Source of the DNA: a virus
Lineage: Duplodnaviria; Caudoviricetes
Virus record (IMG/VR): IMGVR_UViG_3300034151_000114
Location: 7,634-71,633 of that record
DNA: 64,000 nucleotides
Reading direction: 5' to 3' (one strand)
In this document: positions 6,558 to 47,990 of the stretch, in pieces
Position numbering within the stretch: position 1 is the stretch's first letter
Layout of the letters: each line of letters starts with the position of its first letter
Translations under genes and position numbers: made by a program
Notes under the pieces: generated by a model
Database searches by the model: none
Told to the model about the DNA's origin: nothing
What the model saw: the letters and a program-made list of their open reading frames with translations, nothing else

Positions 6558-8160
6558 GTCAGCCGACGAACAGGCGGAGGAACTCGCCTGGCGGATCATG
6601 CTCCCGTCGCGGGTGGCGCAGCACCTCGCCCCCAGGGTGATGGGACGGCCCTACATCGTCCACCCGTGGATCGCCTACGTCGAGCGCGAGGTCATGGCGA
6701 TGTTCCAGCGGCCGGGGCGGGAAGTCCTCATCATCAACACTCCGCCGCAGGAAGGCAAGTCGACGTACTTCGGGATGTGGCTGCCGTTCTGGCTGGTCGG
6801 GATGCGGCCCGACGACCTCGGGATGCTGATCGGGTACAGCGACGACTACATGGGGACCTGGGGGGTCCGGGTCCGCGACCTGATCGCCACCTACGGCCCC
6901 GAGCTGTTCAACGTGGGGCTCAGCAAGAGCCAGGGGGGCATCAACAACTGGCGGACCGCCCGAGGGTTCGGAGGGATCCTGTCGGCCGGGATCGGGGGAG
7001 GGATCACCGGGAACCCGGGCATGTGGATCGTCCTCGACGACGTGATCAAGAACATGGAGGAGGCCGGGTCGCCCACCACCAAGCGCAAGCACCTGGAGGA
7101 GTGGGACGGGTCCATCTCGGCCCGCTTCCAGGAGGAGACCAAGGTGATCGCCTGCGTCACCCTGTGGGCCGAGGACGACCTGCCGAGTTCGATCGTGCTG
7201 CGGTCGCTGGAGCCCGACTACGAGGGGATCCCGGTCCGCCAGATCCGGATCAAGGCGATGGCCGAGCCGGACGAGGACGAAGAGCTGGAGATGACCGAGG
7301 ACGACCGGGCGCAATGGCGGGACCCGATCGGACGCCGCATCGGTGAGACCCTCCAGGGCCAGCACTCGCGCTCGTTCTTCCTGGAGAAGCGGGCCTCGAT
7401 CTCACCGTACGTGTGGTCCGCCCTCTACCAGGCGAGCCCGTCGGCTCGCAAGGGGTCGATGTTCCCGATGGAGAACTGGGGCTGGTACGACCCCGACGAC
7501 CTCCCGCCGCTCACCACGTCACGCCGCGGCTGGGACCTGGCGGCGACCGAAGGGGGCGGGGACTTCACGGTCGGAGCCCACGTTGGCAAGCACGTCCGGC
7601 CGGACAAGATGCAGAAGGTCTACATCTTGGACCTGCGCCGGTTCCAGCGGTCCACCTCGGGGGTGCGCGACGAGGTGATGCGCTGCGCTCGTGCCGACGG
7701 GATGGGCGTCAGGATCCTCATGGAGCAGGAGCTGCAGGGCTCGGGTAAGAGCGTCGTGCAGGGCTACGCAGACGATCTGCGCGGCTGGGACTTCGAGGGG
7801 GTCCGGCCGGACAAGGAGAAGGTGTCCCGCTACACGAACTACTCGGACCTCCAGCAGAGAGGCCACGTCCTGTTGCCCCGGCGCAAGGACGGGTCCACCC
7901 CGGACTGGGTCTCAGCCTTCATCGCTGAGCACAAGATGCAGATGCCCGACGGACGGGGTCCGCGCCACGACGACCAGATCGACGCCGTCGCCCTGTGCAT
8001 CAACGATATGTACGGCTCGGGCCCGATCGAGATCGTTGATCCCGGGGCCCCCAATCGCCACGCAGCGGATCAGATCAGGGACCTGGCTGCGCTTCACGGG
8101 GTGAGGATGCAGCCACCGATTCCCGATCGCCTGGCAAAGCTCCTCGGTCGGCAAATCTGA
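6544..8160 (+). CDS. terminase large subunit (Terminase_6 / Terminase_6C type)
   Basis: Walker A-like PPQEGKS, GIGGGITGNPG, Walker B VLDDVIKN, WAEDD, LYQ..P, nuclease GWDLA...GDFTVG and HDDQIDA. Confidence 0.93.
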   Translation: MTRAKSADEQAEELAWRIMLPSRVAQHLAPRVMGRPYIVHPWIAYVEREVMAMFQRPGREVLIINTPPQEGKSTYFGMWLPFWLVGMRPDDLGMLIGYSDDYMGTWGVRVRDLIATYGPELFNVGLSKSQGGINNWRTARGFGGILSAGIGGGITGNPGMWIVLDDVIKNMEEAGSPTTKRKHLEEWDGSISARFQEETKVIACVTLWAEDDLPSSIVLRSLEPDYEGIPVRQIRIKAMAEPDEDEELEMTEDDRAQWRDPIGRRIGETLQGQHSRSFFLEKRASISPYVWSALYQASPSARKGSMFPMENWGWYDPDDLPPLTTSRRGWDLAATEGGGDFTVGAHVGKHVRPDKMQKVYILDLRRFQRSTSGVRDEVMRCARADGMGVRILMEQELQGSGKSVVQGYADDLRGWDFEGVRPDKEKVSRYTNYSDLQQRGHVLLPRRKDGSTPDWVSAFIAEHKMQMPDGRGPRHDDQIDAVALCINDMYGSGPIEIVDPGAPNRHAADQIRDLAALHGVRMQPPIPDRLAKLLGRQI

Positions 8161-8674: not shown

Positions 8675-8931
8675 GGGGCCTCCTTGATGAGGTCGGCTTC
8701 CCGCAGGGCCCGGACGACCGCCCTGGCGTAGTCCCACGGGTTGCTCGACCGCATCCGCATCATCTGCTGGCCCGCAGCGTCGAGAGCGATGTCCAGCACC
8801 ACGTCGTCGTCCGCGCGCGGGGCCAGTGATCGGCCAGCGTCCGCCGACGGTCTACCGCCGGACGGATGGTCTTGATGTGGCCCCACGCGCGATCCGTAGT
8901 CGCCATGCGGGCGAAGCTGGTAGTCGCTCAT
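8671..8931 (-). CDS. hypothetical protein
   Basis: Start/stop overlaps with both neighbours. Confidence 0.55.
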   Translation of the reverse strand: MSDYQLRPHGDYGSRVGPHQDHPSGGRPSADAGRSLAPRADDDVVLDIALDAAGQQMMRMRSSNPWDYARAVVRALREADLIKEAP

Positions 8932-9167
8932 GACGGCTTGCCCCGGCCCACCGAGCGGGTCTGCTCCAAGGGGATCTGCTCGGTCATGTCCCGCAGGGCG
9001 TCAACGACGGCGACGAACCCTTCGGGGTCCTGGCGGGCGAAGTCCGCCGGGCTGTCGAAGCCCCGCTGACTACAGGCCGACGTGATCCCCATCTTGACGT
9101 ACTCGTCGTGGCGGCTGGTCGTGCGAACCCAGTTGGCGCACTCCAGCACGGTCAGGTCGTCGATCAT
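8928..9167 (-). CDS. hypothetical protein
   Basis: Coupled ORF. Confidence 0.6.
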   Translation of the reverse strand: MIDDLTVLECANWVRTTSRHDEYVKMGITSACSQRGFDSPADFARQDPEGFVAVVDALRDMTEQIPLEQTRSVGRGKPS

Positions 9168-9415
9168 GCGTTCTCCTCGATCAACTTCAGCGCTGCTTCG
9201 CTGAGGCGCAGGCCGCGCCCCACCACCTTGCCTCCGATCCGGGGCCTCACGATCAGGCCCTCGGTCTCCATCTGGTCGATGATCTGGTAGGCCCGAGCCC
9301 GGCTCACCTTGATCTTCGCTGCGATCTCGTCGCCCGTGGGGGCGAACCCGTTCCGCTCCTCGTACCCGTCGATGAAGCGCAACACCTGGGCGCTCCGCTT
9401 GGTGTACCGCCTCAT
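9164..9415 (-). CDS. LexA-type winged-HTH DNA-binding protein (no peptidase domain)
   Basis: TKRSAQVLRFI...EERNGFAPT..EIA......RA.AY..I..ME..GLI.R. Confidence 0.8.
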   Translation of the reverse strand: MRRYTKRSAQVLRFIDGYEERNGFAPTGDEIAAKIKVSRARAYQIIDQMETEGLIVRPRIGGKVVGRGLRLSEAALKLIEENA

Positions 9416-9816
9416 GTCAGCTCCAGTCGTAGTCGCATGTTCATCTGTCGGCAGCGCGTGACCGTGAACGTCGGGTCTCGCAGCTCGATCCAGTCGGTCG
9501 AATCGTCGACGAAGATCCCAGCCATCACCAGCCCGTCGATGAACCACTTGCACACCGTCGAGCTGTAGTTGTGCCCGTCCCGTCTGCGGTAGGACTTCAT
9601 GTCGAAGTCGAATTGCAGGATCGCCCTGCGCTCAAGGGGGGTCGAGATCCCGCTGCGGCCCAGGACCCACTTGAGTCCACCAGCGTGCCAGAACCCGGCG
9701 TCCCTCCACGGGCTACGGATCCGGGCGACGCTCATCGGGTGCACGCCGGAGATCTCGTTGATCGACCAGACCTTGGCCGGTTGAGGGAGGGCGACCACCT
9801 GCACCACCGCGTTCAC
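9412..9816 (-). CDS. rusA: RusA-like Holliday junction resolvase
   Basis: RRRDGHNY...CKWFIDGLVMAGIFVDDS matches the RusA D..N..K...D.L...G...DD motif. Confidence 0.75.
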   Translation of the reverse strand: MNAVVQVVALPQPAKVWSINEISGVHPMSVARIRSPWRDAGFWHAGGLKWVLGRSGISTPLERRAILQFDFDMKSYRRRDGHNYSSTVCKWFIDGLVMAGIFVDDSTDWIELRDPTFTVTRCRQMNMRLRLELT

Positions 9817-10208
9817 AGCGGGTCCCTCATCACGTCGTCGGGCAGGAGCCCACGCGCCGACGCCTCCCACAGGTGCACCTCGGGAAGGTCGGGCTTCAAG
9901 AGCGCCAGCGCTGCGTACCCGGCCTCACAGCCGAACCAGGTCACAGCGTCCGGCTCGGCTCCGTACCCGACCAGGAACTGCATGTGGGTGTCGGTGACGG
10001 CCACCGTGCGCCCGGCGATCGGCCCGATGTGGAACTTCAACCACCAGGCGCACGCCTCGGCGAGGGTCTCGAACACGTGGAGTGCGAAGGGTTCCCTCGT
10101 GTCGGTGGCGACGGCGAGCACGGCGTAGGGCCCGACCGGGTCATAGCCCCACGGCGGCTGGGCAGGCTTCTGGATGGCCGGGTCGAACTTGGGCTCACGT
10201 CTTCGCAT
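9813..10208 (-). CDS. hypothetical protein
   Basis: Coupled ORF. Confidence 0.6.
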   Translation of the reverse strand: MRRREPKFDPAIQKPAQPPWGYDPVGPYAVLAVATDTREPFALHVFETLAEACAWWLKFHIGPIAGRTVAVTDTHMQFLVGYGAEPDAVTWFGCEAGYAALALLKPDLPEVHLWEASARGLLPDDVMRDPL

Positions 10209-13958: not shown

Positions 13959-14707
13959 CAGAAGGACCACTCTGCCGTGAAGGTGAGTACGGCATCGCGG
14001 TTCTCGGGGGTGGGGGGCCACAGCTTGGCTGCAGCGAGGTCCCGCACCAGGGCGACCTTGGTCTTGTTGTCCCAGTCCTTGGTCGCCTCGTTGAAGGCGT
14101 CCATCTCGGGACGCGAGATGCCCCCGGGGCCAGCGGGCGGGCTGGACCCCGGGGGCCGGGGAGCCGACGAGGGGGATCGTGGCTCACCCGCTTCACCACC
14201 AGAGGGGGACTGCGGTGGCGAAGAGGTCTTGCGGTCCGGAAGGACCTCGAAGTGCATGAGTACGGCAGCTTGGCGCCCGGCGTTCTCGCCAGAGCGGATC
14301 TCCTCGAACGCCTTCCAGCAGAGCAGGGTACTGCCCGGCGCCACCTGGGCCAGGCGCTCGTGGATCAGCTTGCCCGGTGGGGTGTCGGTGCGCTCGGTGC
14401 GCAGCCGCTGGATCCCGTCCGGGTGGTCCTTGTCCCGGGGGTGCTCCAGCTTCACGACCAGGCGTGTGCTCGACTCCTCCAGTTCGTTGCCGAAGTAGAC
14501 GGCGGTGAACACGACGGCGTCGACCATGGCGAGAGCCCGGCGCATCTGGTTCGAGCGGGCTCCGAACATCGCCCCCACCTCGGGGATCAAGACGTTCACC
14601 CGTCCCCGCCAAGCGACGCTCGAATCCATCTTCCCGGCTGCGGCGACAGCCGCCGCCAGGATCAGGCGAGCCTCGCTCAGTCGGTCGGCTGTCGGTTCCT
14701 CAGCCAT
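13958..14707 (-). CDS. hypothetical protein with Pro/Ser linker
   Basis: 249-aa ORF, coupled to its neighbours. Confidence 0.7.
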   Translation of the reverse strand: MAEEPTADRLSEARLILAAAVAAAGKMDSSVAWRGRVNVLIPEVGAMFGARSNQMRRALAMVDAVVFTAVYFGNELEESSTRLVVKLEHPRDKDHPDGIQRLRTERTDTPPGKLIHERLAQVAPGSTLLCWKAFEEIRSGENAGRQAAVLMHFEVLPDRKTSSPPQSPSGGEAGEPRSPSSAPRPPGSSPPAGPGGISRPEMDAFNEATKDWDNKTKVALVRDLAAAKLWPPTPENRDAVLTFTAEWSF

Positions 14708-15017
14708 AGAGCGCCTCGTTCCAGACTTCTTGGAGTGCTGCCGGGTCCGTCAGGATCAGCCCGAACATCGGGTGGTGGTGGTGTATCTCGACGAGGTCGT
14801 CGTCGGGACGGAACCGCAGCTCGATCTCGCCGCGGGCAGCCAGCTCCCGGAGCTGCTGGACGGTGACCGTCTCCCAGACCCGGGGCTTCAGCGCCTCGGC
14901 CATCTCCTGGTTGCAGATCCAGGCCATCAAGGCGTCGTCGGTGGCCCGCTCGATGGTCCAGCCCTTGAGTTCGAGCTGCTTCATCAGCCGCTCGTACATC
15001 GGGTGGTCTTCGTTCAT
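14700..15017 (-). CDS. hypothetical protein
   Basis: ATG overlaps the upstream TGA. Confidence 0.6.
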   Translation of the reverse strand: MNEDHPMYERLMKQLELKGWTIERATDDALMAWICNQEMAEALKPRVWETVTVQQLRELAARGEIELRFRPDDDLVEIHHHHPMFGLILTDPAALQEVWNEALYG

Positions 15018-19802: not shown

Positions 19803-20003
19803 TCATTCGTCCAACTTCCATGATCCCGAGTCGGTGCAATCCAACTCGTTCTCCCACTCGTCCAGGATCTTCAGGTCCCAGGGCTCGATGTCGGCCTCGT
19901 CCCCGACCACGGTCTCCGGGTCGAAGTCATCCTCGACCTCGACTCGAAGGAAGTGCTCGTTGACGGTCGCCCGCCAGCGCTTGAACTCCAAGACCTTCAT
20001 CAC
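19803..20003 (-). CDS. acidic hypothetical protein
   Basis: Coupled ORF. Confidence 0.55.
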   Translation of the reverse strand: MMKVLEFKRWRATVNEHFLRVEVEDDFDPETVVGDEADIEPWDLKILDEWENELDCTDSGSWKLDE

Positions 20004-20308
20004 TCCAGCCAGGCATCGACGTAGACGTAGCCGCCCGTGCGGCGCATCCAGCAGTGGAACGCCCCCTCGGACAGTGAGTTCACGTCCACGTCACGGGCGA
20101 TTGCCGTGACGTGCATGGGGTCATGCTTCTGCAGACGCTCGATCAGAGCGTCGCGCTCGGCCGGGTCGTCGTAGGCGAATCCCTGCCGGTCCGGCACGAC
20201 GTCGAACCACGACCCGTTGTCGATCCAGCGCGCCCCGTAGGCGGCTCGATACGTCTCGGGTAGATGGTTCGCCAGCGAACCGGTTCCCCACCGGTTGTCA
20301 ACTTTCAT
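20000..20308 (-). CDS. hypothetical protein
   Basis: SD aggaggtgaaac. Confidence 0.7.
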   Translation of the reverse strand: MKVDNRWGTGSLANHLPETYRAAYGARWIDNGSWFDVVPDRQGFAYDDPAERDALIERLQKHDPMHVTAIARDVDVNSLSEGAFHCWMRRTGGYVYVDAWLE

Positions 20309-20510
20309 GTTTCACCTCCTCTCGGTCCAGGTCGATCACGATCTCGTGACGGCTCTTGGCCCTGTAGCTCGGAGCGTGCCAGTAGCGGACCACCGTGAAC
20401 ACGTTCGCCGTGCTCCGCGGGTCACGCTGGATGGCGAGTGCCTTGCGAGCAGCCTCGTAAGCCGAGTCGGCGTCGAGGTCGATCTCCCATCGAACGGTGT
20501 ACTCAGGCAT
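20298..20510 (-). CDS. hypothetical protein
   Basis: YTVRWEID.DADS..EAARKAL.IQRDP.S.A.VF.V. Confidence 0.7.
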   Translation of the reverse strand: MPEYTVRWEIDLDADSAYEAARKALAIQRDPRSTANVFTVVRYWHAPSYRAKSRHEIVIDLDREEVKHES

Positions 20511-21186
20511 ATGCCTGTCCCTTCCTCGTCGGCCCCTGCCTGCGGGGCAGGCCCTTGCAGTGCGGCGTAGCGAACTCGATTCGCTTCGCCTCCATCCACG
20601 TGATGGCCTGCACCTGCACGGCGGTCATCCACGGGTACGTGCGGCGCAGCTCGCGGGCAGCGTCCTCGGTGACGATCTCGTAGCTCTCGTAGCGGGTGCC
20701 CGACCCGCCCCGGTCGATCCCCCGCTTCAGCTTCCACGGGCGCATCTCGTTGGCGATCACGTCGGCGAACCGCCCGTCGATCGTCACGTGCTCGCGCAGG
20801 CTCGGCCCGTAGATGTTCCAGAAGAACGCCCACGTCTTGGGCCCGGTCCTCGGGTTGAGCACCTCGGTCGGGTCGCACTCCAGGCAGGCCCGAGCCTTCG
20901 CACGTTGCCTGCCCGTCACGTGCAACGTGTCAGTCCCGTCGACGATGTGGGTCGCTCTAGCGAAGTTGTCGTCGGCGTCCAGGTTCGGCGAGATCGCCGC
21001 CAGGACGCCCGCAGCGTTACGCGTGCTGACCCCGAGCAGCGCCCCGATGGCGACGGCGCTGTTGTGCGCCCGCTCGTACCAGTACCGGCCCTGAGAGAAC
21101 GTCGGTTCAGGCGTCTCCAGGACCATCGTCACCAGCCGGTCCACGACCTTGTCGTGGTTGTCCGGCGTTATGTCGAAGTGGTTCAT
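20503..21186 (-). CDS. DUF7178-like protein (tentatively HhH-glycosylase-like fold)
   Basis: G.YWY..A...A......S...AAGVLAAISP...N...A, GPKT.AF..NI, VTIDG, Y......AA...VQAITW. Confidence 0.55.
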   Translation of the reverse strand: MNHFDITPDNHDKVVDRLVTMVLETPEPTFSQGRYWYERAHNSAVAIGALLGVSTRNAAGVLAAISPNLDADDNFARATHIVDGTDTLHVTGRQRAKARACLECDPTEVLNPRTGPKTWAFFWNIYGPSLREHVTIDGRFADVIANEMRPWKLKRGIDRGGSGTRYESYEIVTEDAARELRRTYPWMTAVQVQAITWMEAKRIEFATPHCKGLPRRQGPTRKGQAYA

Positions 21187-21380
21187 TGCTCCTCCGCTGG
21201 GAAGAACTTGGTGACCTCGCGGTCCCGCTCGTCGGCGGTGGCTTCGCTTACGAACTCCAGCCGCGACTCCGGGTCATCGAAGGCGTCGAGGATCGAGTAT
21301 TCGTCGGCTTCTTCCGGAGCGTCGACGTACCAGGTCTCATGGATGACGGCCGTGCACGTCGTGTGCACTTCGTACCTCAT
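21183..21380 (-). CDS. hypothetical protein
   Basis: Strong SD. Confidence 0.65.
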   Translation of the reverse strand: MRYEVHTTCTAVIHETWYVDAPEEADEYSILDAFDDPESRLEFVSEATADERDREVTKFFPAEEQ

Positions 21381-21393
21381 GTTCCACCTCCTC

Positions 21394-21726
21394 TCAGAGA
21401 TCAGGCCACCAGCGCCAGTCGCCGCACTTGGATGCGGCGTCGCTGGCGTAGGCGGCTGCACTGGACCATGCGGACTCTCCGACGAACGTCTTGGTCCGCA
21501 TGTCCGGGACGTTCTTGAGCCGGACTCGGAAGCTGCCCCCGGCGTAGCGGGTGTTCAGCTTCGTGTCGATCATGTCGGCCTGCTCGACGACGATGGATGC
21601 GGGCTCGGCCTGCACCTCACCACCACCGAGATAGCGGTCGCCTTGGTAGTGGCGCTCCTCGCGGAGCCGCCACTCACCGATCGGCTTGCTGCGGGCTGTC
21701 GGGCAGCCCTTGCGTGTTCGTGTCAC
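21394..21726 (-). CDS. hypothetical protein
   Basis: SD gggaggtg before GTG. Confidence 0.6.
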   Translation of the reverse strand: MTRTRKGCPTARSKPIGEWRLREERHYQGDRYLGGGEVQAEPASIVVEQADMIDTKLNTRYAGGSFRVRLKNVPDMRTKTFVGESAWSSAAAYASDAASKCGDWRWWPDL

Positions 21727-21730
21727 GTTG

Positions 21731-22108
21731 TCACACCTCCCTTCGGAGGTATCGCTGCCACTGATCGGAGACGGACCCGAGGAACGATGTCTCGCCCCCG
21801 TAGTACGCCTTCGCCTCGTCGGTGGCCCAGATGGCAAAGGCCGATTCGCTGACGTCCGGGTAGTCGCCTTCGTCAACGCGGCCCGCTGCGTAGAAGTACG
21901 CAGCGGCCTGGCGTCGTTCGATGTCTCGGCTGCGGGCCAAGGCCGCCCGCTCGGTGTCCTCCATCACATCCTCTCCGGTGAGGGGTCCTAGGTCTCGGTA
22001 CAGGGTTCGTGCTTCGTCTTCAGTGAGATGCACAGTCACCATCTTCTTTCCGAGGGGGTAGGTGACGTCGATGGTGCTGAGTACGGGGTTGCGTTGTGCG
22101 CTGGCCAT
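21731..22108 (-). CDS. hypothetical protein (alternative start 22042)
   Basis: GC3-rich ORF. Confidence 0.55.
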   Translation of the reverse strand: MASAQRNPVLSTIDVTYPLGKKMVTVHLTEDEARTLYRDLGPLTGEDVMEDTERAALARSRDIERRQAAAYFYAAGRVDEGDYPDVSESAFAIWATDEAKAYYGGETSFLGSVSDQWQRYLRREV

Positions 22109-22127
22109 CAGATATCCCCCTTGTAGC

Positions 22128-22283
22128 TCATAGCGACTCCCGGATTTCCTTCCGCAGGTCCTCGACGACTCCGGCCCAATACTTCAGGCCATGGAAGTCG
22201 ACGCTGCCGTCGGGGTGGTCAAGGAGCCATTGCACGTTGCGCTTGGCCTTGTCGAGCCCTTCGATCTTCTCTTGTGTGGTCAT
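22128..22283 (-). CDS. 51-aa hypothetical protein (not in the ORF track)
   Basis: MTTQEKIEGLDKAKRNVQWLLDHPDG.... SD gggagagg. Confidence 0.6.
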   Translation of the reverse strand: MTTQEKIEGLDKAKRNVQWLLDHPDGSVDFHGLKYWAGVVEDLRKEIRESL

Positions 22284-22301
22284 CGCTTCTCCTCTCCCAT
22301 G

Positions 22302-22436
22302 TCAGTGCTCCCTTGAAGTGCTCACGAGCCAGAGGAACAGCTCGAACGCCATGGCGCAGAACACACCGGCGGCGAACGCCGAGCCGGTGGCGACCCAGAC
22401 CATGAGCGCCCAGAAGGCAACCCCTAGCTGGATCAT
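22302..22436 (-). CDS. 44-aa membrane peptide (not in the ORF track)
   Basis: MIQLGVAFWALMVWVATGSAFAAGVFCAMAFELFLWLV. SD ggaggag. Confidence 0.6.
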   Translation of the reverse strand: MIQLGVAFWALMVWVATGSAFAAGVFCAMAFELFLWLVSTSREH

Positions 22437-31070: not shown

Positions 31071-31358
31071 ATGCCAGCAGAGAATCTCCAGACGTCCGAT
31101 GAGGCGCAGATGACCGTCGCAGCGCAGTCCGAGACGGACCCGTTGCTCACCCGCACGGGCGCCCTCAGCAACCTCAAGGGGACGCCCCTGGCGGACCTGC
31201 GCGAGACCCTGCTCGAACGCCAGGCCGACATCGACATGCACATCGAGGGGTACCGCAAGCTGCGGGCCGAGGCCAACGACAAGATCCGCGAGCTGCAGGC
31301 CGAGAAGGCGCAGAACGCCCGGCTCCTCAACGCCTTCAAGAGCCGCACCCGCAAGTGA
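31071..31358 (+). CDS. coiled-coil protein (leaderless start)
   Basis: TGA-TATCTT lies 6 nt before ATG. Confidence 0.7.
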   Translation: MPAENLQTSDEAQMTVAAQSETDPLLTRTGALSNLKGTPLADLRETLLERQADIDMHIEGYRKLRAEANDKIRELQAEKAQNARLLNAFKSRTRK

Positions 31359-31410
31359 CCGTCCCCGAGGATCGGGCGCTGGTAGCACTCGACGGTGCGG
31401 ACGACGGCGC

Positions 31411-31677
31411 TCACTCGGCCACCTGGCGCACGGCCGCCTCGATGGCGGCGAAGATGGTCGGGCCCCCGAACTGCGCAGTGCTGCCCTGGTTCCAGAAGGT
31501 GACAAGATACGAGGGGCCCTCGGCGACCCACATGGCGTCGAAGAGTTCGTGGCCCTGGCTCAGCAACCACGCCAGCAGGTCGTCGACGTCGTACCCGCAT
31601 CCAGCGAACGGGATGCCTTCCTTGTCGAGGTACTGCTTCGACCACCCGATGATCTCGGCAACGCTGCGTTCGTTCAT
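31411..31677 (-). CDS. hypothetical protein
   Basis: GC3-rich ORF at the end of the leftward mini-gene operon. Confidence 0.55.
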   Translation of the reverse strand: MNERSVAEIIGWSKQYLDKEGIPFAGCGYDVDDLLAWLLSQGHELFDAMWVAEGPSYLVTFWNQGSTAQFGGPTIFAAIEAAVRQVAE

Positions 31678-31742
31678 GCCGCCATCAGGTGTCCTCGTCG
31701 ACGAACTCGGTCATCAACGCTTCCCGTGCTCGCCGCCGGGCG

Positions 31743-31856
31743 CTACTCATGGTGATGCCCTTTCCGATCGTCGAGCCATTTGGCGTTTGAGTCCCGGATC
31801 CAGAAGCCGAGGGCGAGCCCGGCGACGATCATCAGCGACGGGATGAGATACCTCAC
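31743..31856 (-). CDS. 37-aa transmembrane peptide
   Basis: MRYLIPSLMIVAGLALGFWIRDSNAK... Confidence 0.45.
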   Translation of the reverse strand: MRYLIPSLMIVAGLALGFWIRDSNAKWLDDRKGHHHE

Positions 31857-31916
31857 GGCTCGCCTTTGCGATATCCCGCCGGGGCAGAAGAGGGAGGACC
31901 TCCCCGTCGGGTCAGG

Positions 31917-32150
31917 TCAGACGGCATGACGGACCACCAGTTCTCGCCCATCGTGGAGGATGATGTTGCCGTCGCAGCGGCCATGCCCACAGCATGACGA
32001 TGCGGTGAGAACGCCCGCGGTGTTGAGTGCGTCCACGATGAGAGCTAGACATCGATCGACCGACTTGCTGGCCCATCGCATCTCACCCGTGTAGGAGAGA
32101 TTCGCTGGGATGGGGACGGCCAGGATCACTGTGTCACCGTCGTCACACAT
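31917..32150 (-). CDS. SCCGH-motif protein
   Basis: VDRCLALIVDALN.AGVLT.SSCCGHG. Confidence 0.7.
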   Translation of the reverse strand: MCDDGDTVILAVPIPANLSYTGEMRWASKSVDRCLALIVDALNTAGVLTASSCCGHGRCDGNIILHDGRELVVRHAV

Positions 32151-32370
32151 CTAGGGCCGTCCGCTGTGTAGGGTCGGGGTTCTTACCGGTTTCGGGGGTG
32201 TGCTCTCGGACCTGGGGCGTGTCCCGGTCGATTGGCCGGGACACGTTCGCGTCGGACGTGTCGCCTCCATGCCAGTGCCCGCAACATTTGTGATAGTGGC
32301 GGCGATCCAGTCCGCAACCGTGCAGATGGTCGCAGCAAGGATCGTTCAGCGGTTCGGTCAGGTCACTCAT
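32143..32370 (-). CDS. Cys/His-rich mini-protein starting with the junction module
   Basis: MSDLTEPLNDPCCDHLHGCG... Confidence 0.55.
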   Translation of the reverse strand: MSDLTEPLNDPCCDHLHGCGLDRRHYHKCCGHWHGGDTSDANVSRPIDRDTPQVREHTPETGKNPDPTQRTALDV

Positions 32371-32480
32371 CGCTCGATCCGCTCCAACCTGCCACCACAG
32401 TTCTCGCACGGCTTGTCGGCGACCTCAGCTAGCGGGAACACCCATCCGCAGTCGGAGCACACCCACTCGGAATCACTCAC
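32367..32480 (-). CDS. 37-aa rubredoxin-like zinc ribbon
   Basis: MSDSEWVCSDCGW...KPCENCGGRLERIER, coupled on both sides. Confidence 0.6.
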   Translation of the reverse strand: MSDSEWVCSDCGWVFPLAEVADKPCENCGGRLERIER

Positions 32481-32647
32481 GGCGACCCCCACGGTTGGTC
32501 GTCCCAGTGCCGGTGTGCCCCTTCGGGGTTGGTCCAGTCATCGGCACCGCACAGTCCGGCGCAATGTTCGAGGCAGTCGCGTTCGCAGTCGTAGGCGAGG
32601 AATCGACCGGTCACGGGATGGCGTGCCGGTTCGGTCGGGTCACTCAT
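32477..32647 (-). CDS. 56-aa Cys-containing mini-protein with the junction module
   Basis: MSDPTEPARHP...CERDCLEHCAGLCG. Confidence 0.55.
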   Translation of the reverse strand: MSDPTEPARHPVTGRFLAYDCERDCLEHCAGLCGADDWTNPEGAHRHWDDQPWGSP

Positions 32648-32819
32648 CGCTGGCTTCTTCGGCATGGTCGTGCCACCCCCGGTGGAGCGCGACCGCGTCG
32701 AACGAATCGCGAGGATCGATCAGGATTGCGCCCCCACACGTTCGGCAGGTGACGAATCCCACCCGCGCTCCGAGCAGGTTCACGAAATCGTTCAGCGGTT
32801 CGATGCGGTTCTCAGGCAT
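32640..32819 (-). CDS. 59-aa CxxC mini-protein with the junction module
   Basis: MPENRIEPLNDF...TCRTCGGAIL...ALHRGWH. Confidence 0.6.
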   Translation of the reverse strand: MPENRIEPLNDFVNLLGARVGFVTCRTCGGAILIDPRDSFDAVALHRGWHDHAEEASDE

Positions 32820-33315
32820 GGACGATTCTCTCGATCCCCGCTCCGCTGATGAGCACCGCGCACCCGTGGCACGGTTCGCCCGTCACGTAGATGGTGCGAC
32901 CCCGCGTTTCCCTTCCGGCCCGCATGATCGCGTTCGCTTCGGCGTGGATCGCATCGCACCGACCGCGACCCTCGCTGTACGGCGCACACGACGGAAGCTC
33001 CGCCTTCGTGAGCAGACCACGCGGGCAGTCCCCGTCGAGGCATGACCCGGCCTTCGAGGCGAGTCCGTTGTAGCCGAGCGAGATGATGTCCTTCGTCGCC
33101 TCATCGAAGATGAGCGCGGCGTGCCGGGACCGGCGACAGTCGGCGCGGCAGTCGGCCAACAGTCGGCACATGGCGAGCAGGGTGTCATCCCACGACTTCC
33201 GTCCGCGATTGAACAGCGGTTCGATTCGCTCACTCGCCCATCCGCAGTTTCGGCATCGTCCGTTCTCGATGCGCCCGACCATCGTGCAGCGCGGACACTT
33301 CGCCGGGGAAGTCAT
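32812..33315 (-). CDS. dCMP deaminase with a fused N-terminal zinc ribbon
   Basis: I.S.GYNG, HAEANAI, YVTGEPCHGCA.LI..AGI.RIV. N-terminus CPRC...CRNC. Confidence 0.92.
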   Translation of the reverse strand: MTSPAKCPRCTMVGRIENGRCRNCGWASERIEPLFNRGRKSWDDTLLAMCRLLADCRADCRRSRHAALIFDEATKDIISLGYNGLASKAGSCLDGDCPRGLLTKAELPSCAPYSEGRGRCDAIHAEANAIMRAGRETRGRTIYVTGEPCHGCAVLISGAGIERIVHA

Positions 33316-33428
33316 CGCAGGATCAATCCGGCAGCGAGGATCACGAAGTAGGCAACGACCGCCCACTTGGGCGGGAAGGCGTCACGCAGGCGGGAATTGA
33401 ACAGCGGTTCGATTGGTTCACTCGGCAT
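33312..33428 (-). CDS. 38-aa transmembrane mini-protein with the junction module
   Basis: MPSEPIEPLFNSRLRDAFPPKWAVVAYFVILAAGLILR. Confidence 0.55.
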   Translation of the reverse strand: MPSEPIEPLFNSRLRDAFPPKWAVVAYFVILAAGLILR

Positions 33429-33585
33429 ACGGGTCGCCAGCCTCTCGCCGTAGCTCGGACCACCACGGTTCCCACTGGCCGCGGTAGTACCAGCGCCCGT
33501 AGCACGCGCCGCGGTTCGAGCACAACGCTTCGCCGGGGTGTCGGCAGACGGAACAGATCATCGGTTCGGTCCGCTCACTCGGCAT
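33418..33585 (-). CDS. 55-aa Cys-rich mini-protein with the junction module
   Basis: MPSERTEPMICSVCRHPGEALCSNRGACYG... Confidence 0.55.
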   Translation of the reverse strand: MPSERTEPMICSVCRHPGEALCSNRGACYGRWYYRGQWEPWWSELRREAGDPYAE

Positions 33586-33754
33586 GGTCTTGTCCGTACG
33601 CGACGAGGTCGTCCACGATCCCCCACAAGGTCGCTGCTTCGGGGAGTTCGAGGTCTGCTAATCGTTGCGCGACGGCATCGACGCGGTAGGCGATGGCCCC
33701 GAGTGGAGTCACGGTCTCGGGTGCGTTGACCAGCGGTTCAGATTCAGATGACAT
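33575..33754 (-). CDS. 59-aa mini-protein with the junction module
   Basis: MSSESEPLVNAPETVTPLGAIAYRVDAVAQRL... Confidence 0.55.
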   Translation of the reverse strand: MSSESEPLVNAPETVTPLGAIAYRVDAVAQRLADLELPEAATLWGIVDDLVAYGQDHAE

Positions 33755-34067
33755 GCTTGATCATCCGCCGCAGCCTGAAACCGTCGGGGCACCACACGAC
33801 GCTGGCGTCGACCCCGGGCTTGGCGAGGTTCCCGATGATCCGGTCGACGATCCCGAGGTCCCCGATCCAGCGGATGCAGACCCCCTCGGTCCAGTAGAGC
33901 GACTTCCCCGAATCGCAGTAGATGTACCCCCAGTGCCGCTCCCTGTAGCGGGTGCAGTCGTAGGCCGCAGCCTCGGCGGGCCGGTGCTGCGGCAGCGCCA
34001 CCACGGCCGTGCCGACGCTCGCTGCGACTACGGCGATCGCTGCGAGCCATGCCCTCAGCTTGTTCAT
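33744..34067 (-). CDS. secreted four-Cys protein
   Basis: MNKLRAWLAAIAVVAASVGTAVVALPQHRPAEA signal, then C...C...C...C. Confidence 0.7.
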   Translation of the reverse strand: MNKLRAWLAAIAVVAASVGTAVVALPQHRPAEAAAYDCTRYRERHWGYIYCDSGKSLYWTEGVCIRWIGDLGIVDRIIGNLAKPGVDASVVWCPDGFRLRRMIKHVI

Positions 34068-34273
34068 CTCGGTCCCTCCCATGCTTCCAGTGCCGCCGCT
34101 ATCTGTTCCCGGAACGACGAGCGGGCCAACACGTTTGCCATCGTCGGGCACAGTGGACAGTGCCCGACGATGTACCGCTCGTGGAAGTCGTCCGGCCGGG
34201 TCTCGTGCAGCATCCGGTCCACGGCGCGGTCCGTCGCAAGGGCGCAGTGGCCGAACAGCTCGTTGCGGTCCAC
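34064..34273 (-). CDS. hypothetical protein
   Basis: Coupled GTG. HCPLC. Confidence 0.55.
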   Translation of the reverse strand: MDRNELFGHCALATDRAVDRMLHETRPDDFHERYIVGHCPLCPTMANVLARSSFREQIAAALEAWEGPR

Positions 34274-34455
34274 TAAGGCCTTTCTCTCCAATACTGGTAC
34301 CGGTTCAGCACACCAGGGGACAGCTCGCCCTCCTGCTTGAGGACGTGGTGCTCGTAGCCCAACCGTTCCAGGGCCGTGCGGGCCTCCTCGAAGTTGCACT
34401 CGATCGCATTGTCGATCTCGCCGTCGACCAGGCTCACCACGAAGTAGGTCGTCAC
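34273..34455 (-). CDS. hypothetical protein
   Basis: Coupled GTG. Confidence 0.55.
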   Translation of the reverse strand: MTTYFVVSLVDGEIDNAIECNFEEARTALERLGYEHHVLKQEGELSPGVLNRYQYWRERP

Positions 34456-34637
34456 AGCACCCCCCAGAACGCAGCAGCCTCTTCGTAGCCTTCCAGGATC
34501 CGGTTCATGTCGCCCGAGCGGTAGTTGGACCAGATCCGCGAGCGCAGCTCGCGCGGGAGCGAGAACCAGTGGACCCGGCAGGCGAACATCGAGGACTGGA
34601 CCCTGATCTCGCATTCGGGGTGTGGGCATGTCTCCAT
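34452..34637 (-). CDS. conserved Cys/His protein (leaderless start)
   Basis: CP.P.C...V...MFACR.HWFSLP.ELRS.IW..YR.G. TGA-TATCCT lies 7 nt before ATG. Confidence 0.75.
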   Translation of the reverse strand: METCPHPECEIRVQSSMFACRVHWFSLPRELRSRIWSNYRSGDMNRILEGYEEAAAFWGVL

Positions 34638-34699
34638 CTCCGACAGGATATCACACCATGAGCCGGACGATGTGATATCCGATCGTCTATCATGCGCCA

Positions 34700-34954
34700 A
34701 TGGCCATCTATGGACGACGCCAACCGATCAACGGGCGAGCCGGGATCTACATGAGTGTGTGGATGAACACCGAGGACCTCGCTGCCCTCGACAGCCTCTC
34801 GCGCTACTGGGGGCTCAACCGGTCCCAGACGATGAAGCGCGCTGTGGCCGACATGAACGCCGAGAACATCCGGTTCAAGCGCGGACCCAGGCAGGCGACC
34901 CACAAGAAGGGGACCCACCGCCAGCCGCGGCGGATGAAGCGCCTCGAAGGTTAG
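34700..34954 (+). CDS. CopG/RHH-like DNA-binding protein (leaderless start)
   Basis: YMSVWMNTEDLAALDSLSRYWGLNRSQTMKRAV. TATCAT lies 6 nt before ATG. Confidence 0.7.
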   Translation: MAIYGRRQPINGRAGIYMSVWMNTEDLAALDSLSRYWGLNRSQTMKRAVADMNAENIRFKRGPRQATHKKGTHRQPRRMKRLEG

Positions 34955-35029
34955 AAGCCCGGGCCCCCCGGTCAAGTCAAGCGGGCGGCAATCCTTGACG
35001 CTGGGGGGGCCAACGGGCTTCAATGGAAG

Positions 35030-35500
35030 TTGCCCACCTCCGGTTCAGAGACTAGCCGGAGTCCCCCCGGAAAGGAAGTCTCTTTGAGCCCCTCCTCCTG
35101 CGGCCACCCCGCTGGCGACCGAGCCAACTGGGGCACGGCCACCCTCTGCGCCCGGTGCCTGTGCGACCGCAAACAGGCGATCCGCGAGCACCTCGGAATG
35201 CCCCCTTTGTCGATCGGGAGGCCCGGATTGGGCCGCCCCGAGTACGGACCCGAGGTCTTCAACCTGATCTGCGAGGCCTGCGGGGCCGGATGGTGCGGCC
35301 GACCCGGCGAAGAGTGCCATTATTGCGCGATCAGCCTCGAACTGACGATCGAAGAGCAGCGCAGGCTGCTCTTGACGCCCGAACAGGGCCAGAACCTCCA
35401 ATCGTGGGTCGAAAGGCTCGCCCGGGGGGTCGAATCCGGGCTCATCACCCAATGGGAGGCCCGAAACGCGGCCAAACGGGCCAAAGGCCGCCAACTGTGA
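35030..35500 (+). CDS. Cys-rich hypothetical protein (start uncertain)
   Basis: CGH...CARC.C and CEACG...CHYC, coupled to the helicase. Confidence 0.5.
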   Translation: MPTSGSETSRSPPGKEVSLSPSSCGHPAGDRANWGTATLCARCLCDRKQAIREHLGMPPLSIGRPGLGRPEYGPEVFNLICEACGAGWCGRPGEECHYCAISLELTIEEQRRLLLTPEQGQNLQSWVERLARGVESGLITQWEARNAAKRAKGRQL

Positions 35501-36336
35501 GCCATATCGACAACTTCGACCCTCAAGTAGAGCTTGAGGCCCTTCTCAACCCCCCTTCGAGGCGCCAGGTGCGCCTCACGCCCGCTTCGGCGATCAAACC
35601 GAGGCGCCAGCCGTGGTTGTGGGCCGGAAAGCTGCCTCTGGGCGAGCTGGCGCTCACCGTGGGCCGCGGAGCGGTCGGAAAGTCGTGTTTCCACGCCCGG
35701 GTCATCTCCGACATCACCCACGGGCGGCTCCAGGGCGACCTGTTCGGCACCCCGCGCGCCTGCGCCATCGCTTCGACCGAGGATTCGTGGGAGCACACGA
35801 TCGTGCCCCGTCTGATCGTCTCGGGGGCCAATCTGGACATGGTGTACCGGCTCTCCACGGTCACCGAGGAGGGTGTGGACGTCTCGATCAGCCTCCCGGC
35901 CGACCTTCCGTCGCTGGAGAGCGTGATCTTCGAGCACCGCATCGCCCTGGTCTCGGTCGACCCCCTCCTGGGCGTCGTGGGCGACTCGATCGACTCCCAC
36001 AAGGACGCCGAGGTCCGTCGTGCCCTGCAGCCGCTCGTGGACGTCGCCCACACGACCGGGTGCTCGATCCTGGGCAACGCCCACTTCACCAAGTCCTCGG
36101 CGGGGACCGTCGACGGGATCATGGGCTCCGCCGCCTTCGGGAACGTCCCCCGCTCGGTACTTGCATTCGTCAAGGATGTCGAGGCCGGGCATTGCACGAT
36201 GACCCAGATCAAGAACAACCTCGGCCCCGAAGACGCGGCGGGGTGGAACTACCTGATCATCGCTGGCTACTACGACACCGACGAGGGCGAAACGCTCGCC
36301 ACCGGCCAGTTCGCCTGGCTGAGCAAAGGACACTGA
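35497..36336 (+). CDS. AAA_25 / RepA-like replicative helicase
   Basis: WLW.GKLPLG.L....GRGAVGKS, Walker B LVSVDP, H.TK...GS.AF..VPR.V, IKNNLG. Confidence 0.85.
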   Translation: MSHIDNFDPQVELEALLNPPSRRQVRLTPASAIKPRRQPWLWAGKLPLGELALTVGRGAVGKSCFHARVISDITHGRLQGDLFGTPRACAIASTEDSWEHTIVPRLIVSGANLDMVYRLSTVTEEGVDVSISLPADLPSLESVIFEHRIALVSVDPLLGVVGDSIDSHKDAEVRRALQPLVDVAHTTGCSILGNAHFTKSSAGTVDGIMGSAAFGNVPRSVLAFVKDVEAGHCTMTQIKNNLGPEDAAGWNYLIIAGYYDTDEGETLATGQFAWLSKGH

Positions 36337-46328: not shown

Positions 46329-47243
46329 AGCTGCACGCCCTGTCGTCGCAGCCCCAGTTTCTGGAGACACGTCCGGCCGATCTTCGAGGCGCTCCCCGAT
46401 GACCTCCGTGGGGAGCGCCTCGAACCCCCCTGTAGGGTCCGGCGCTACCCGCCCGAGGACGTCTTCCTGGTCGGCGGGTACGGCAACATCGTCACCGCCG
46501 GGGCTCACCGCGTGATCTACGTGGAGCACGGGGCCGGTCAGACCTACAAGATGGTCAAGCCCCGCATCGCCGCCCACTACCCCGGGGGCCCGCACCCGGA
46601 CAACGTGATCGGCTACATCTGCCCGAACGAGATCGTGGCCAAGTCCTGGGACCGTCCAGCGGTCGCCGTCGGATGCCCAGCCCTGGACGGGGCCGAGCCA
46701 GGGGTCGGCAGGCACGTCGTGATCACGTTCCACTGGGACGCCCCGGCCGTCTGTCCCGAGGCCCGCTCGGCTCGTCCGCACTACATCGAGGATCTCCACT
46801 GTCTGATCCCCTGGGTGAACGACGCTGGCCTTGAGCTGCTCGGGCACGCCCACCCGCGCGACACCGTCGCCAAAGGGATCTGGCGCAAACTGGGGGTCCC
46901 CTTCGAGCCCGACCCTGACGTGGCGCTGCACAAGGCCTCACTGGTGATCGCCGACAACACCAGCTTCGCCTACGAGGCGGCGAACCTGGAGATCCCCAAC
47001 GTCGCTCTCAACGCCCCGTGGTACCGCCGCGACGTGGAGCACGGGCTGCGGTTCTGGGAGCATCCGCCGGGGCTGATGGTCGACGACATCTGGGGCATCC
47101 TCGCTCATGACGTCGACCACTTCCTGTGGGACTCCGAGAACCGCTGGGTCCGTGAGGCTGCGGCCGAGCGGGCCTACAGCCACCGTCCCGACACGGGAGG
47201 GACGGATCTGGCGGTCGAGTTCGTCATGGACCTCGTGCGGTAA
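46325..47243 (+). pseudogene. GT-B/TagF-like glycosyltransferase with an apparent +1 frameshift near codon 10-14
   Basis: The ATG 46325 frame stops at about 46402. The +1 frame is open from 46329 with HVRPIFEALP...VIYVEHGAGQTY...HPR...DNTSFAYEAA and has no start codon until 46512. Confidence 0.6.
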
Positions 47244-47252
47244 CGTTCGAGC

Positions 47253-47990
47253 GTGGTCTTGAACTTCGCCTGCACGCCAGCGTTGACCGAGGCCGAGGTC
47301 GACCTGTCCGAGTGCGAATGCGAGGTGACCAGCCTCACCGTCGACATCGCCGATCTCATCGGCGCAGCCTCCGACGCCCTGTACGTCCTGACCGGCGGGC
47401 TCGCCTCGGGCCTGTGCTCGTTCACGGTCCGCCCGTGCTGGGACGGGCCCTGGTGCGTCTGCGGGCGCGGGCGGGGCTGTCGGTCGTGCGCGATCCCGGG
47501 GATCCCTCTCAAGGGGATCCGCCCGGTGGTGACCCAGGTCAAGATCGACGGCGTCGTCGTCCCGGCGACCGACTATGTCTTGATCGACGGGTACAAGCTG
47601 GTCCGCGTCGATGGGACCGGTTGGCCCGCCTCCAAGAACGCACTCCTGCCCGACACCGAGGACGACACGTTCTCGGTCACCATCACGCACGGGCTCGACT
47701 GGGACTTCCTCGCCAAGATGGCGGCCAACGAGCTGGTCTGCGAGATGGTTCTCGTCCTCACCGGATCCGAGACGCGCCTGCCCAAGGGGGCCGTCTCCTA
47801 CACGGCTGACGGGGTCCAGATCGTCGTCGGGCGCCTGCCCGGTCAGGAGGAGATCCAGGCGGTCGGGCTGACCTGGCTCGGCAAGTTCCTGGCCCTGTAC
47901 GGCAACGCCGTCATGTCGCAGTTGCTCAGCCCCGAGCTGCGCGAGGGCTGGACTCTCCACCACGTCGAGTTCTACCCGGTCGTCCCGTGA
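47253..47990 (+). CDS. head-to-tail adaptor
   Basis: AAS..LY.LTG...C..TVRPC, V..VKIDG, ELVCE...LP...VS....GV. Confidence 0.75.
   Translation: MVLNFACTPALTEAEVDLSECECEVTSLTVDIADLIGAASDALYVLTGGLASGLCSFTVRPCWDGPWCVCGRGRGCRSCAIPGIPLKGIRPVVTQVKIDGVVVPATDYVLIDGYKLVRVDGTGWPASKNALLPDTEDDTFSVTITHGLDWDFLAKMAANELVCEMVLVLTGSETRLPKGAVSYTADGVQIVVGRLPGQEEIQAVGLTWLGKFLALYGNAVMSQLLSPELREGWTLHHVEFYPVVP

Follow-up and report, generated by a model that had tools for sequence, protein, structure and literature searches.

A conserved in-frame nine-nucleotide core at the gene boundaries of a phage mini-gene array, a probable site of cassette exchange in uncultured high-GC phages

Introduction

A debate of several decades concerns the origin of phage mosaicism, with homologous exchange at short conserved linkers on one side and random illegitimate joining with subsequent selection on the other. 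For actinobacteriophages, the illegitimate-join view prevails because linkers are usually not found (PMC3029335). The present analysis concerns a stretch of 64,000 nt from a tailed virus of the Caudoviricetes (IMG/VR record IMGVR_UViG_3300034151_000114, positions 7,634 to 71,633; 67% GC), which makes up most of the 71.6-kb viral record and is called the window below. On its minus strand, from 34151 to 32143, lies a chain of overlapping mini-genes forming an early-type operon, in which a short repeated junction stands between gene bodies that are otherwise unrelated. The locus raises the question of what preserves this junction, and recombination between cassettes, a shared peptide, a regulator and simple descent from one gene are all weighed here. 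We propose, with a probability of about 0.6, that the repeated element is a frame-locked boundary sequence between the early accessory mini-genes of a hypervariable array, and that cassettes are gained, lost and shuffled at it.

Results and discussion

The junction and its excess over chance

The junctions in the window consist of two parts. The first is an overlap between the start codon of one open reading frame (ORF) and the stop codon of the preceding one, which takes the form of ATGCCGAGTGA, ATGCCTGA, ATGAGTGA or ATGA and makes each junction dual-coding: the upstream ORF ends in (D/H)-A-(E)-stop, and the next begins with M-(P)-S/E-D/E in another frame. The second and distinctive part is GAACCG, of which the window has seven copies, located three to six codons after the start codon; five of the seven are extended to GAACCGCTG and read Glu-Pro-Leu. 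In the other sequences described below, the invariant core is GAACCGC(C/T)G, which encodes Glu-Pro-Leu or Glu-Pro-Pro and lies 1–13 nt after the upstream stop codon. The spaced pattern AGTGA-N6-CGAACCG occurs five times in the window against 0.5 expected, a number that none of 100 shuffles reached, and CGAACCGCTG occurs four times against 0.34 expected. All copies of both patterns are on the minus strand within 32347–33579, and the rest of the whole 71.6-kb record contains no further copies of the motif.

The original prediction, made from the letters of the window alone, had described a repeated module at ORF starts 33754, 33585, 33428, 32819, 32647 and 32370 on the minus strand. These starts and the N-termini given for them were recovered, as was an internal copy near 33240, where the ORF from 33315 reads through into a dCMP deaminase domain. 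The partial copy placed at 32480 has the GTG-AGTGA start and lacks the core. The proposed consensus of the module is likewise retained in part: the core GAACCGCYG is distinctive, whereas the ATG(CCN)AGTGA half is a start/stop overlap that also occurs in Gordonia phage CheeseTouch (L295, 39283–42381), where ATGAGTGA and ATGCCCAGTGA overlaps of 8 and 11 bases produce MSD/MPSD N-termini and GSD-type C-termini. That half of the consensus is therefore not specific to the window phage.

The same core in other phages

Viral and metagenome contigs were scanned with sequence patterns, and only matches with copies preceded by a start codon were retained; with reversed sequences as controls, no more than three such copies turned up, in one of 289 loci. 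About 20 further contigs were found to carry tandem core arrays of 3–12 mini-genes or copies each, all in one frame and on the coding strand, with N-termini of the form M-x(0-9)-E-P-L/P-F/S/N-D/N/I-S/C. Examples are L022/G001 and L309 with seven copies, L303 with eight, L010/G005 with five, and the arrays of L447 and L455. Two records have two arrays each: G003, the record behind L305, with six copies in both (21353–22328 and 46707–47556, minus strand), and G004 with four and five (14280–14748 and 19855–21252). Although the window genome is collinear with G003, the corresponding position (about 8700–10200 of the window) is without a second array. When five further whole records were scanned for GAACCGCYG, the forward and reverse counts were 7/0, 0/5, 1/12, 0/9 and 5/0, concentrated in one or two clusters, and the reversed-pattern control gave 0–5 in the same records.

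The six complete or near-complete records represent at least four groups, with 0–4 protein families in common between groups (BLASTP 1e-4) and 26 and 14 in common within the pairs G000/G003 and G002/G005, respectively. No gene family is common to four or more of the six array-bearing genomes. The core is thus better conserved than almost any protein of these phages. Its third codon is uniform within each genome, being CCG in 12/12 copies of G003 and CTG in 9/9 copies of G004 and 8/8 of L303, which fits concerted evolution by exchange among copies.

No match to the 1.8-kb region was found among 50,697 cultured phage records by nucleotide searches in near or distant mode. The portal protein is approximately 24–28% identical to the portals of Gordonia, Mycobacterium and Streptomyces phages, and an actinobacterial host is likely for this reason. 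Motifs resembling transglycosylases of the resuscitation-promoting-factor type (Rpf-like), recognized by eye in the translations, adjoin the arrays at L305 6376–6714 and L260 9–323 and would be consistent with actinobacterial hosts. A two-core pattern run against bacterial and archaeal genomes gave at least 120 matches that were essentially noise from proline-rich repeats, with no prophage array among the matches listed. Two metagenome contigs of 46–52% GC, L437 and L446, have 84-bp tandem repeats that contain the GAACCGCTGTTC 12-mer by chance; they are unrelated to the arrays and were excluded.

Turnover of the arrays and position of the breakpoints

The arrays were compared all-against-all by BLASTN. 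L022 and L196, which come from one metagenome, have three segments of 154–170 bp in common at 97.5–99.4% identity, each starting at a core and ending 9–17 nt into the next core. Their order is A-B-C in L022 and B-A-D-C in L196, and beyond the array the sole nucleotide similarity between the two is 103 bp at 76%. The exchanged unit runs from core to core and comprises one gene body with the stop/start overlap behind it and the next gene's leader codons, so leaders travel with the upstream body. The leader MPEPGM fronts two different bodies, the body starting NSDRDALAKLY stands behind two different leaders, and in G004 the same body is present in both arrays with different leaders.

Comparison of cassette content between relatives reveals that the backbone is kept and the content of the array replaced. 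The flanks of L022 and L303 are 65–79% identical over several kb and their arrays match at the modules only, these modules of 25–47 bp (83–100% identity) being the sole matches between unrelated units. G000 and G003 are collinear, with the array upstream of the small-terminase/portal block in both, and have no cassette in common. Two units common to L303 and L451 are in opposite order, and L010 and L436 have one common unit. The window cassette that starts at 32819 recurs in L310 beside a terminase gene at 82% DNA identity; one boundary of the homology falls near the core and the opposite one at the CATGCCGA overlap. At 2460–2650 of L310, the leader and core are one base out of frame with the body and a 25-nt insertion is present, which points to decay of the copy or to an error of assembly.

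The asymmetry at the core is also seen when junctions are compared in pairs. Among 104 array junctions, 16 pairs are identical at 26 or more of 30 positions on one side of the core, and 13 of the 16 have 17 or fewer identical positions of 30 on the other side. Together with the reordered units and the replaced arrays of syntenic relatives, these one-sided pairs support the original suggestion that the module is a recombination junction for the gain and loss of cassettes, and the core is the most frequent crossover point in the arrays. Another kind of join is seen in L439, a metagenome contig from a sister sample of L022, in which the flanking units are 100% identical to those of L022 and a chimera at 806–1055 fuses units A and C in frame at the 4-nt microhomology GAGG. 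Judged by this identity, the recombinant is very recent, and the microhomology join indicates that illegitimate exchange is active in the arrays.

The arrays could alternatively have no such function and be tandem duplicates of one gene, in which the initiation region was conserved while the bodies diverged beyond recognition. The tandem layout, the similar start/stop overlaps and the several small Cys-rich bodies would be expected of such a history. However, a dCMP deaminase, a membrane peptide and helical acidic proteins are among the bodies, leader and body are uncoupled, the same body family is without the motif in most relatives, and the identical core is found in phage groups without common proteins. 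A neutral relic would also drift synonymously, and no such drift was observed. We regard descent by duplication alone as highly improbable.

Constraint on nucleotides, and the peptide as an alternative

The separation of DNA-level from peptide-level selection, which the original prediction had put forward as a check, was based on codon usage. Only copies found by a peptide-level pattern that accepts any synonymous codon were counted, and the copies that had supplied the search patterns were left out. In these non-seed copies, Glu is encoded by GAA in 25/26, Pro by CCG in 23/26 and Leu by CTG in 13/14. By comparison, the array gene bodies of six genomes together contain 50 GAA and 100 GAG, and the long genes of the five genomes other than the window's have a GAA:GAG ratio of approximately 1:1.7 to 1:5. 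In the window, all seven Glu-Pro pairs are GAA CCG, as had been noticed from the start, and the long genes have a GAA:GAG of 61:368. This genome-wide contrast overstates the effect, because the window's array genes are themselves richer in GAA (GAA:GAG 26:30, motif included) and lower in G+C at third codon positions (GC3; 0.67–0.80 vs. 0.85–0.92 in long genes). The GAA contrast within the array genes themselves is still decisive. Across all six genomes, the array bodies have more GAA and a GC3 of 0.74–0.82 vs. 0.82–0.89 in long genes, which suggests either a shared cassette pool, as opposed to long residence in one genome, or weak codon adaptation.

The information profile of the aligned copies is a sharp 9-nt block, outside which the preceding codon (I/T/N/D/S/A/M) and the following codon (F/S/N/I/D) both vary. 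The third positions within the core are invariant, so the constraint lies on the nucleotides, and the conservation of the core would reflect selection on nucleotides or very rapid spread.

The peptide itself nevertheless has to be considered. On this account, x-E-P-L/P-F/N-D/N-S would be conserved as an N-terminal or inter-domain tag on unrelated small early proteins, serving as a docking motif, a protease site or a degradation or targeting signal, and recombination would be incidental. The core is indeed always in one frame and near the N-terminus or between domains, the Ser two codons past it is drawn from two codon families (TCC or AGC) or replaced by Cys, and the rare degenerate copies still read D/Q/V-P-L/P-F. 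Against a tag stand the fixed third positions of Glu, Pro and Leu in genes that prefer GAG elsewhere, the lack of amino acid conservation immediately before and after the core, and the 11 of 111 copies (about 10%) that have no start codon and lie between two domains of a fused ORF, as in the zinc-ribbon-deaminase ORF of the window and in L010, L196 and G003. The choice between Leu and Pro is uniform within genomes and different between them, which a common host receptor would not require. Moreover, the profile of a 59-aa cassette family retrieved 338 representatives from 1.84 billion proteins, and 147 of the 150 best members are without the motif, among them the homolog in the cultured phage CheeseTouch; the three with the motif are the query sequences. 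A word-indexed protein search with the 59-aa cassette found the query itself only.

In phage T4, internal proteins share an N-terminal targeting sequence, which guides their packaging and is removed by the prohead protease. A capsid-targeting peptide of this type is spoken against by the internal copies and the operon context here. The earlier idea of a shared targeting peptide is thus weakened by the nucleotide-level invariance, the internal copies, the motif-free family members and the early-type operon, and keeps some support from the peptide signal; overall, a conserved tag is an unlikely but still credible explanation.

The regulator hypothesis and other candidates

The original prediction had also offered a repressor site. 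More broadly, the core might be a DNA or RNA binding site for a regulator, namely host LexA, a phage repressor (stoperator-like) or a RegA/RegB-like translational repressor or RNase acting at cistron 5' ends. Nucleotide-level invariance and strict strand specificity are what such a site would display. In addition, GAAC-N4-GTTC is present in 76 of the 111 copies, and 68 agree with TCGAAC-N4-GTTCGA at 10 or more of its 12 positions, although the GAAC-N4-GTTC count is inflated in that many arrays were fetched with patterns containing GTTC. The spacing GAAC-N4-GTTC is the geometry of the actinobacterial SOS box bound by LexA. In the arrays, however, a fixed left half and spacer are followed by a right half that varies. 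This is the reverse of an SOS box, in which both half-sites are conserved and the spacer is free, and the copies are not at promoters. Palindromic full cores number only 2/5 counted in the window, 0/3 in L014 and 1/5 in G005, and no other GAAC-N4-GTTC lies near a promoter in the window.

L5-type stoperators are asymmetric sites found throughout the genome, all oriented alike with respect to transcription and located for the most part in short gaps between genes. The core shares the uniform orientation, but its copies are within ORFs and are limited to one or two clusters in each genome. The interval 31300–35200 contains no promoter-like site, and no terminator-like site was found at any junction. 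Predicted folds differ among the seven junctions (z from +0.9 to -2.6), with no shared hairpin and no match in Rfam, and the distance from start to core varies from 1 to 11 codons among copies. A regulator would also leave the breakpoints at the core unexplained. We therefore consider a binding site of any of these kinds quite improbable, and for a repressor in particular the clustering at one locus within coding sequence in one frame, the missing promoter and the variable right half of the palindrome argue against the earlier proposal.

Several narrower candidates were rejected. A translation-initiation element does not agree with the variable distance from the start codon and the internal copies. 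A resemblance to a tRNA-like T-arm was dropped in view of the differing folds and the empty Rfam search, and inspection against one 16S rRNA 3'-end sequence showed no complementarity. Judged on sequence only, programmed +1 frameshifting at GAG-TGA fails, since re-pairing of the P-site codon in the +1 frame is impossible. As for a chi-like hotspot, the 9-mer is not over-represented relative to a reversed control in five actinobacterial genomes chosen arbitrarily, a choice that makes this a weak test.

A proposed frame-locked boundary sequence and its possible mechanism

Taken together, the compared sequences indicate a core that is invariant in nucleotides, specific to strand and frame and clustered, breakpoints that coincide with it, and arrays that turn over while the backbone stays. 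Under the boundary-sequence reading, the crossover would fall within the core, and the partners would be two copies of one genome or copies from co-infecting phages. All cores are in the same frame, so a crossover within the core would always rejoin two ORFs, and cassettes could be gained, lost, reordered, duplicated or fused without breakage. The short identity at the junctions suggests that exchange would proceed by short-homology or microhomology recombination rather than by a dedicated enzyme. The core may remain invariant because cassettes that keep it keep spreading, because a factor recognizes it, or because the Glu-Pro-Leu/Pro peptide has an added role.

A number of observations weigh against this interpretation. 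The core could be preserved for some other reason, with recombination there as a side effect, and the Ser two codons downstream, encoded by TCC or AGC or replaced by Cys, carries some peptide-level signal. Exact identity through the core between two junctions is typically 9–15 nt, with a maximum of 19–35 nt within a genome, and 9–15 nt is short for efficient homologous recombination. No recombinase was identified, the RecT, ERF and YqaJ profiles matching nothing in the genome. The clearest shuffling comes from one cluster of related sister-sample contigs, the other cases being more diverged (70–83%), and all of the evidence is at the level of metagenome assemblies.

A stronger version of the boundary-sequence reading would be a dedicated phage system for cassette exchange, in which a putative nuclease or recombinase, or a host hotspot activity, recognizes the strand-specific 9-nt core and drives high-frequency in-frame capture, loss and transfer of cassettes of about 150 bp between unrelated phages. 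We consider such a system rather improbable; if it existed, it would be a translated, phase-locked counterpart of the integron.

For the debate on mosaicism, the arrays offer a concrete linker case, namely a 9-nt in-frame core repeated at the gene boundaries of a hypervariable locus in phage groups that are otherwise dissimilar, with near-identical cassettes moved between backbones exactly at the core, and the question becomes testable. The core also provides a sequence handle for the fast-evolving accessory-gene loci of uncultured high-GC phages, whose array genes may serve host takeover or counter-defense, and it shows the origin of in-frame fusions such as the zinc-ribbon-deaminase ORF.

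Comparison with known systems

A parallel in effect is offered by the promoter-early stem-loop (PeSL) cassettes of T4-type phages, in which short repeated motifs flank small non-essential ORFs in hyperplastic regions, and recombination between copies leads to the insertion, deletion and reordering of ORFs between related phages (Arbiol et al., 2010, PMC2839356; PMC4122927). PeSLs are intergenic units composed of a sigma-70 promoter and a terminator hairpin (PMC2839356; PMC4122927). Recombination between copies shuffles the flanked ORFs here too, but the motif is situated in coding sequence, is frame-locked, has an invariant part of 9 nt and is without promoter, terminator or hairpin, and the hosts are probably high-GC Actinobacteria. 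The comparison with PeSLs made in the original prediction therefore applies to the effect and not to the anatomy.

Short conserved boundary, or linker, sequences have been proposed for the mosaicism of lambdoid phages and discussed for mycobacteriophages (PMC3029335). As in that proposal, a short conserved sequence stands at the gene boundaries of otherwise unrelated DNA and the breakpoints fall on it; the differences are that it is explicit here, with 5–12 repeats per array, that it is translated, and that it is common to unrelated phage groups. The element is outside both anatomical classes, PeSLs and boundary sequences.

The start-associated sequences (SAS/ESAS) of Cluster K mycobacteriophages are reportedly 13-bp motifs, scattered over the genome, that contain the ribosome-binding site and precede the start codon by a few bp. 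The present core, by contrast, is downstream of the start, translated, clustered and without GGAGG. To our knowledge, no link between SAS and recombination has been described. The likeness is that of a repeated, orientation-specific motif at the starts of a subset of actinophage genes (PMC3203893).

Integrons resemble the arrays in having tandem promoterless cassettes in one orientation, a recombination site at each boundary and a fast turnover of content. Their attC sites are imperfect palindromes of 57–141 bp that fold and are recombined by an adjacent IntI integrase. The site in the arrays is instead coding and in frame and has no shared fold, and the neighboring ORFs gave no Pfam family for an integrase, the match being AAA_25. 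Another analogy is found in CdiA and Rhs toxins, whose swappable C-terminal modules are demarcated by VENN and PxxxxDPxGL motifs. There, too, a short conserved coding motif is the in-frame exchange point for variable modules; those are single junctions in very large bacterial proteins, whereas many junctions between separate phage mini-genes are present here.

Gene layout of the array in the window

The genes of the array are listed in Table 1. Within the fused ORF, the dCMP deaminase domain matches Pfam PF00383 at residues 41–165 (E 1e-14), and the internal junction has no usable in-frame ATG or stop. A one-base insertion was rejected as the full account of this fusion: the internal ATG-GGC-GAGTGA is one base longer than ATG-CCG-AGTGA, yet a one-base deletion restores no in-frame stop.

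Table 1. Genes and cores of the mini-gene array in the window.
Feature	Coordinates	Strand	Product	Junction and core
Gene before first junction	33744..34151	-	Up to 135 aa from GTG 34151; hydrophobic segment	Stop overlaps start 33754
Mini-gene 1	33575..33754	-	59 aa, acidic helical; N-terminus MSSESEPLVN	Core GAACCGCTG at 33731-33739
Mini-gene 2	33418..33585	-	55 aa, Cys-rich	ATGCCGAGTGA start/stop overlap; degenerate core GAACCGATG at 33559-33567
Mini-gene 3	33312..33428	-	38 aa, hydrophobic (membrane-type) peptide	Core 33402-33410
Fused ORF	32812..33315	-	167 aa; zinc ribbon, then dCMP deaminase domain	Internal junction between the domains, core 33214-33222
Mini-gene 5	32640..32819	-	59 aa, zinc-ribbon/HxxWH family	Core 32793-32801
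Mini-gene 6	32477..32647	-	56 aa; N-terminus MSDPTEP	Degenerate core GAACCGGCA at 32624-32632
Mini-gene 7	32367..32483	-	About 38 aa, zinc ribbon	GTG-AGTGA start only, without core
Mini-gene 8	32143..32370	-	75 aa, Cys/His-rich; N-terminus MSDLTEPLND	Core 32347-32355, the last of the array

Pfam and PHROGs searches of 30 neighboring and early ORFs matched only AAA_25, DUF7178 and three PHROGs with unknown function. The AAA_25 (RepA/DnaB-like) ATPase is encoded at 35155–36336 on the plus strand, divergently from the array operon and approximately 450 bp past that operon's start, and the DUF7178 protein is encoded at 20503–21186 on the minus strand within a long leftward block. Inside the array, a partial GAACCGC copy is located at 32805–32811 on the minus strand, immediately 3' of the upstream TGA and just before the full core of mini-gene 5, and this second, partial core looks like a small tandem duplication of the junction.

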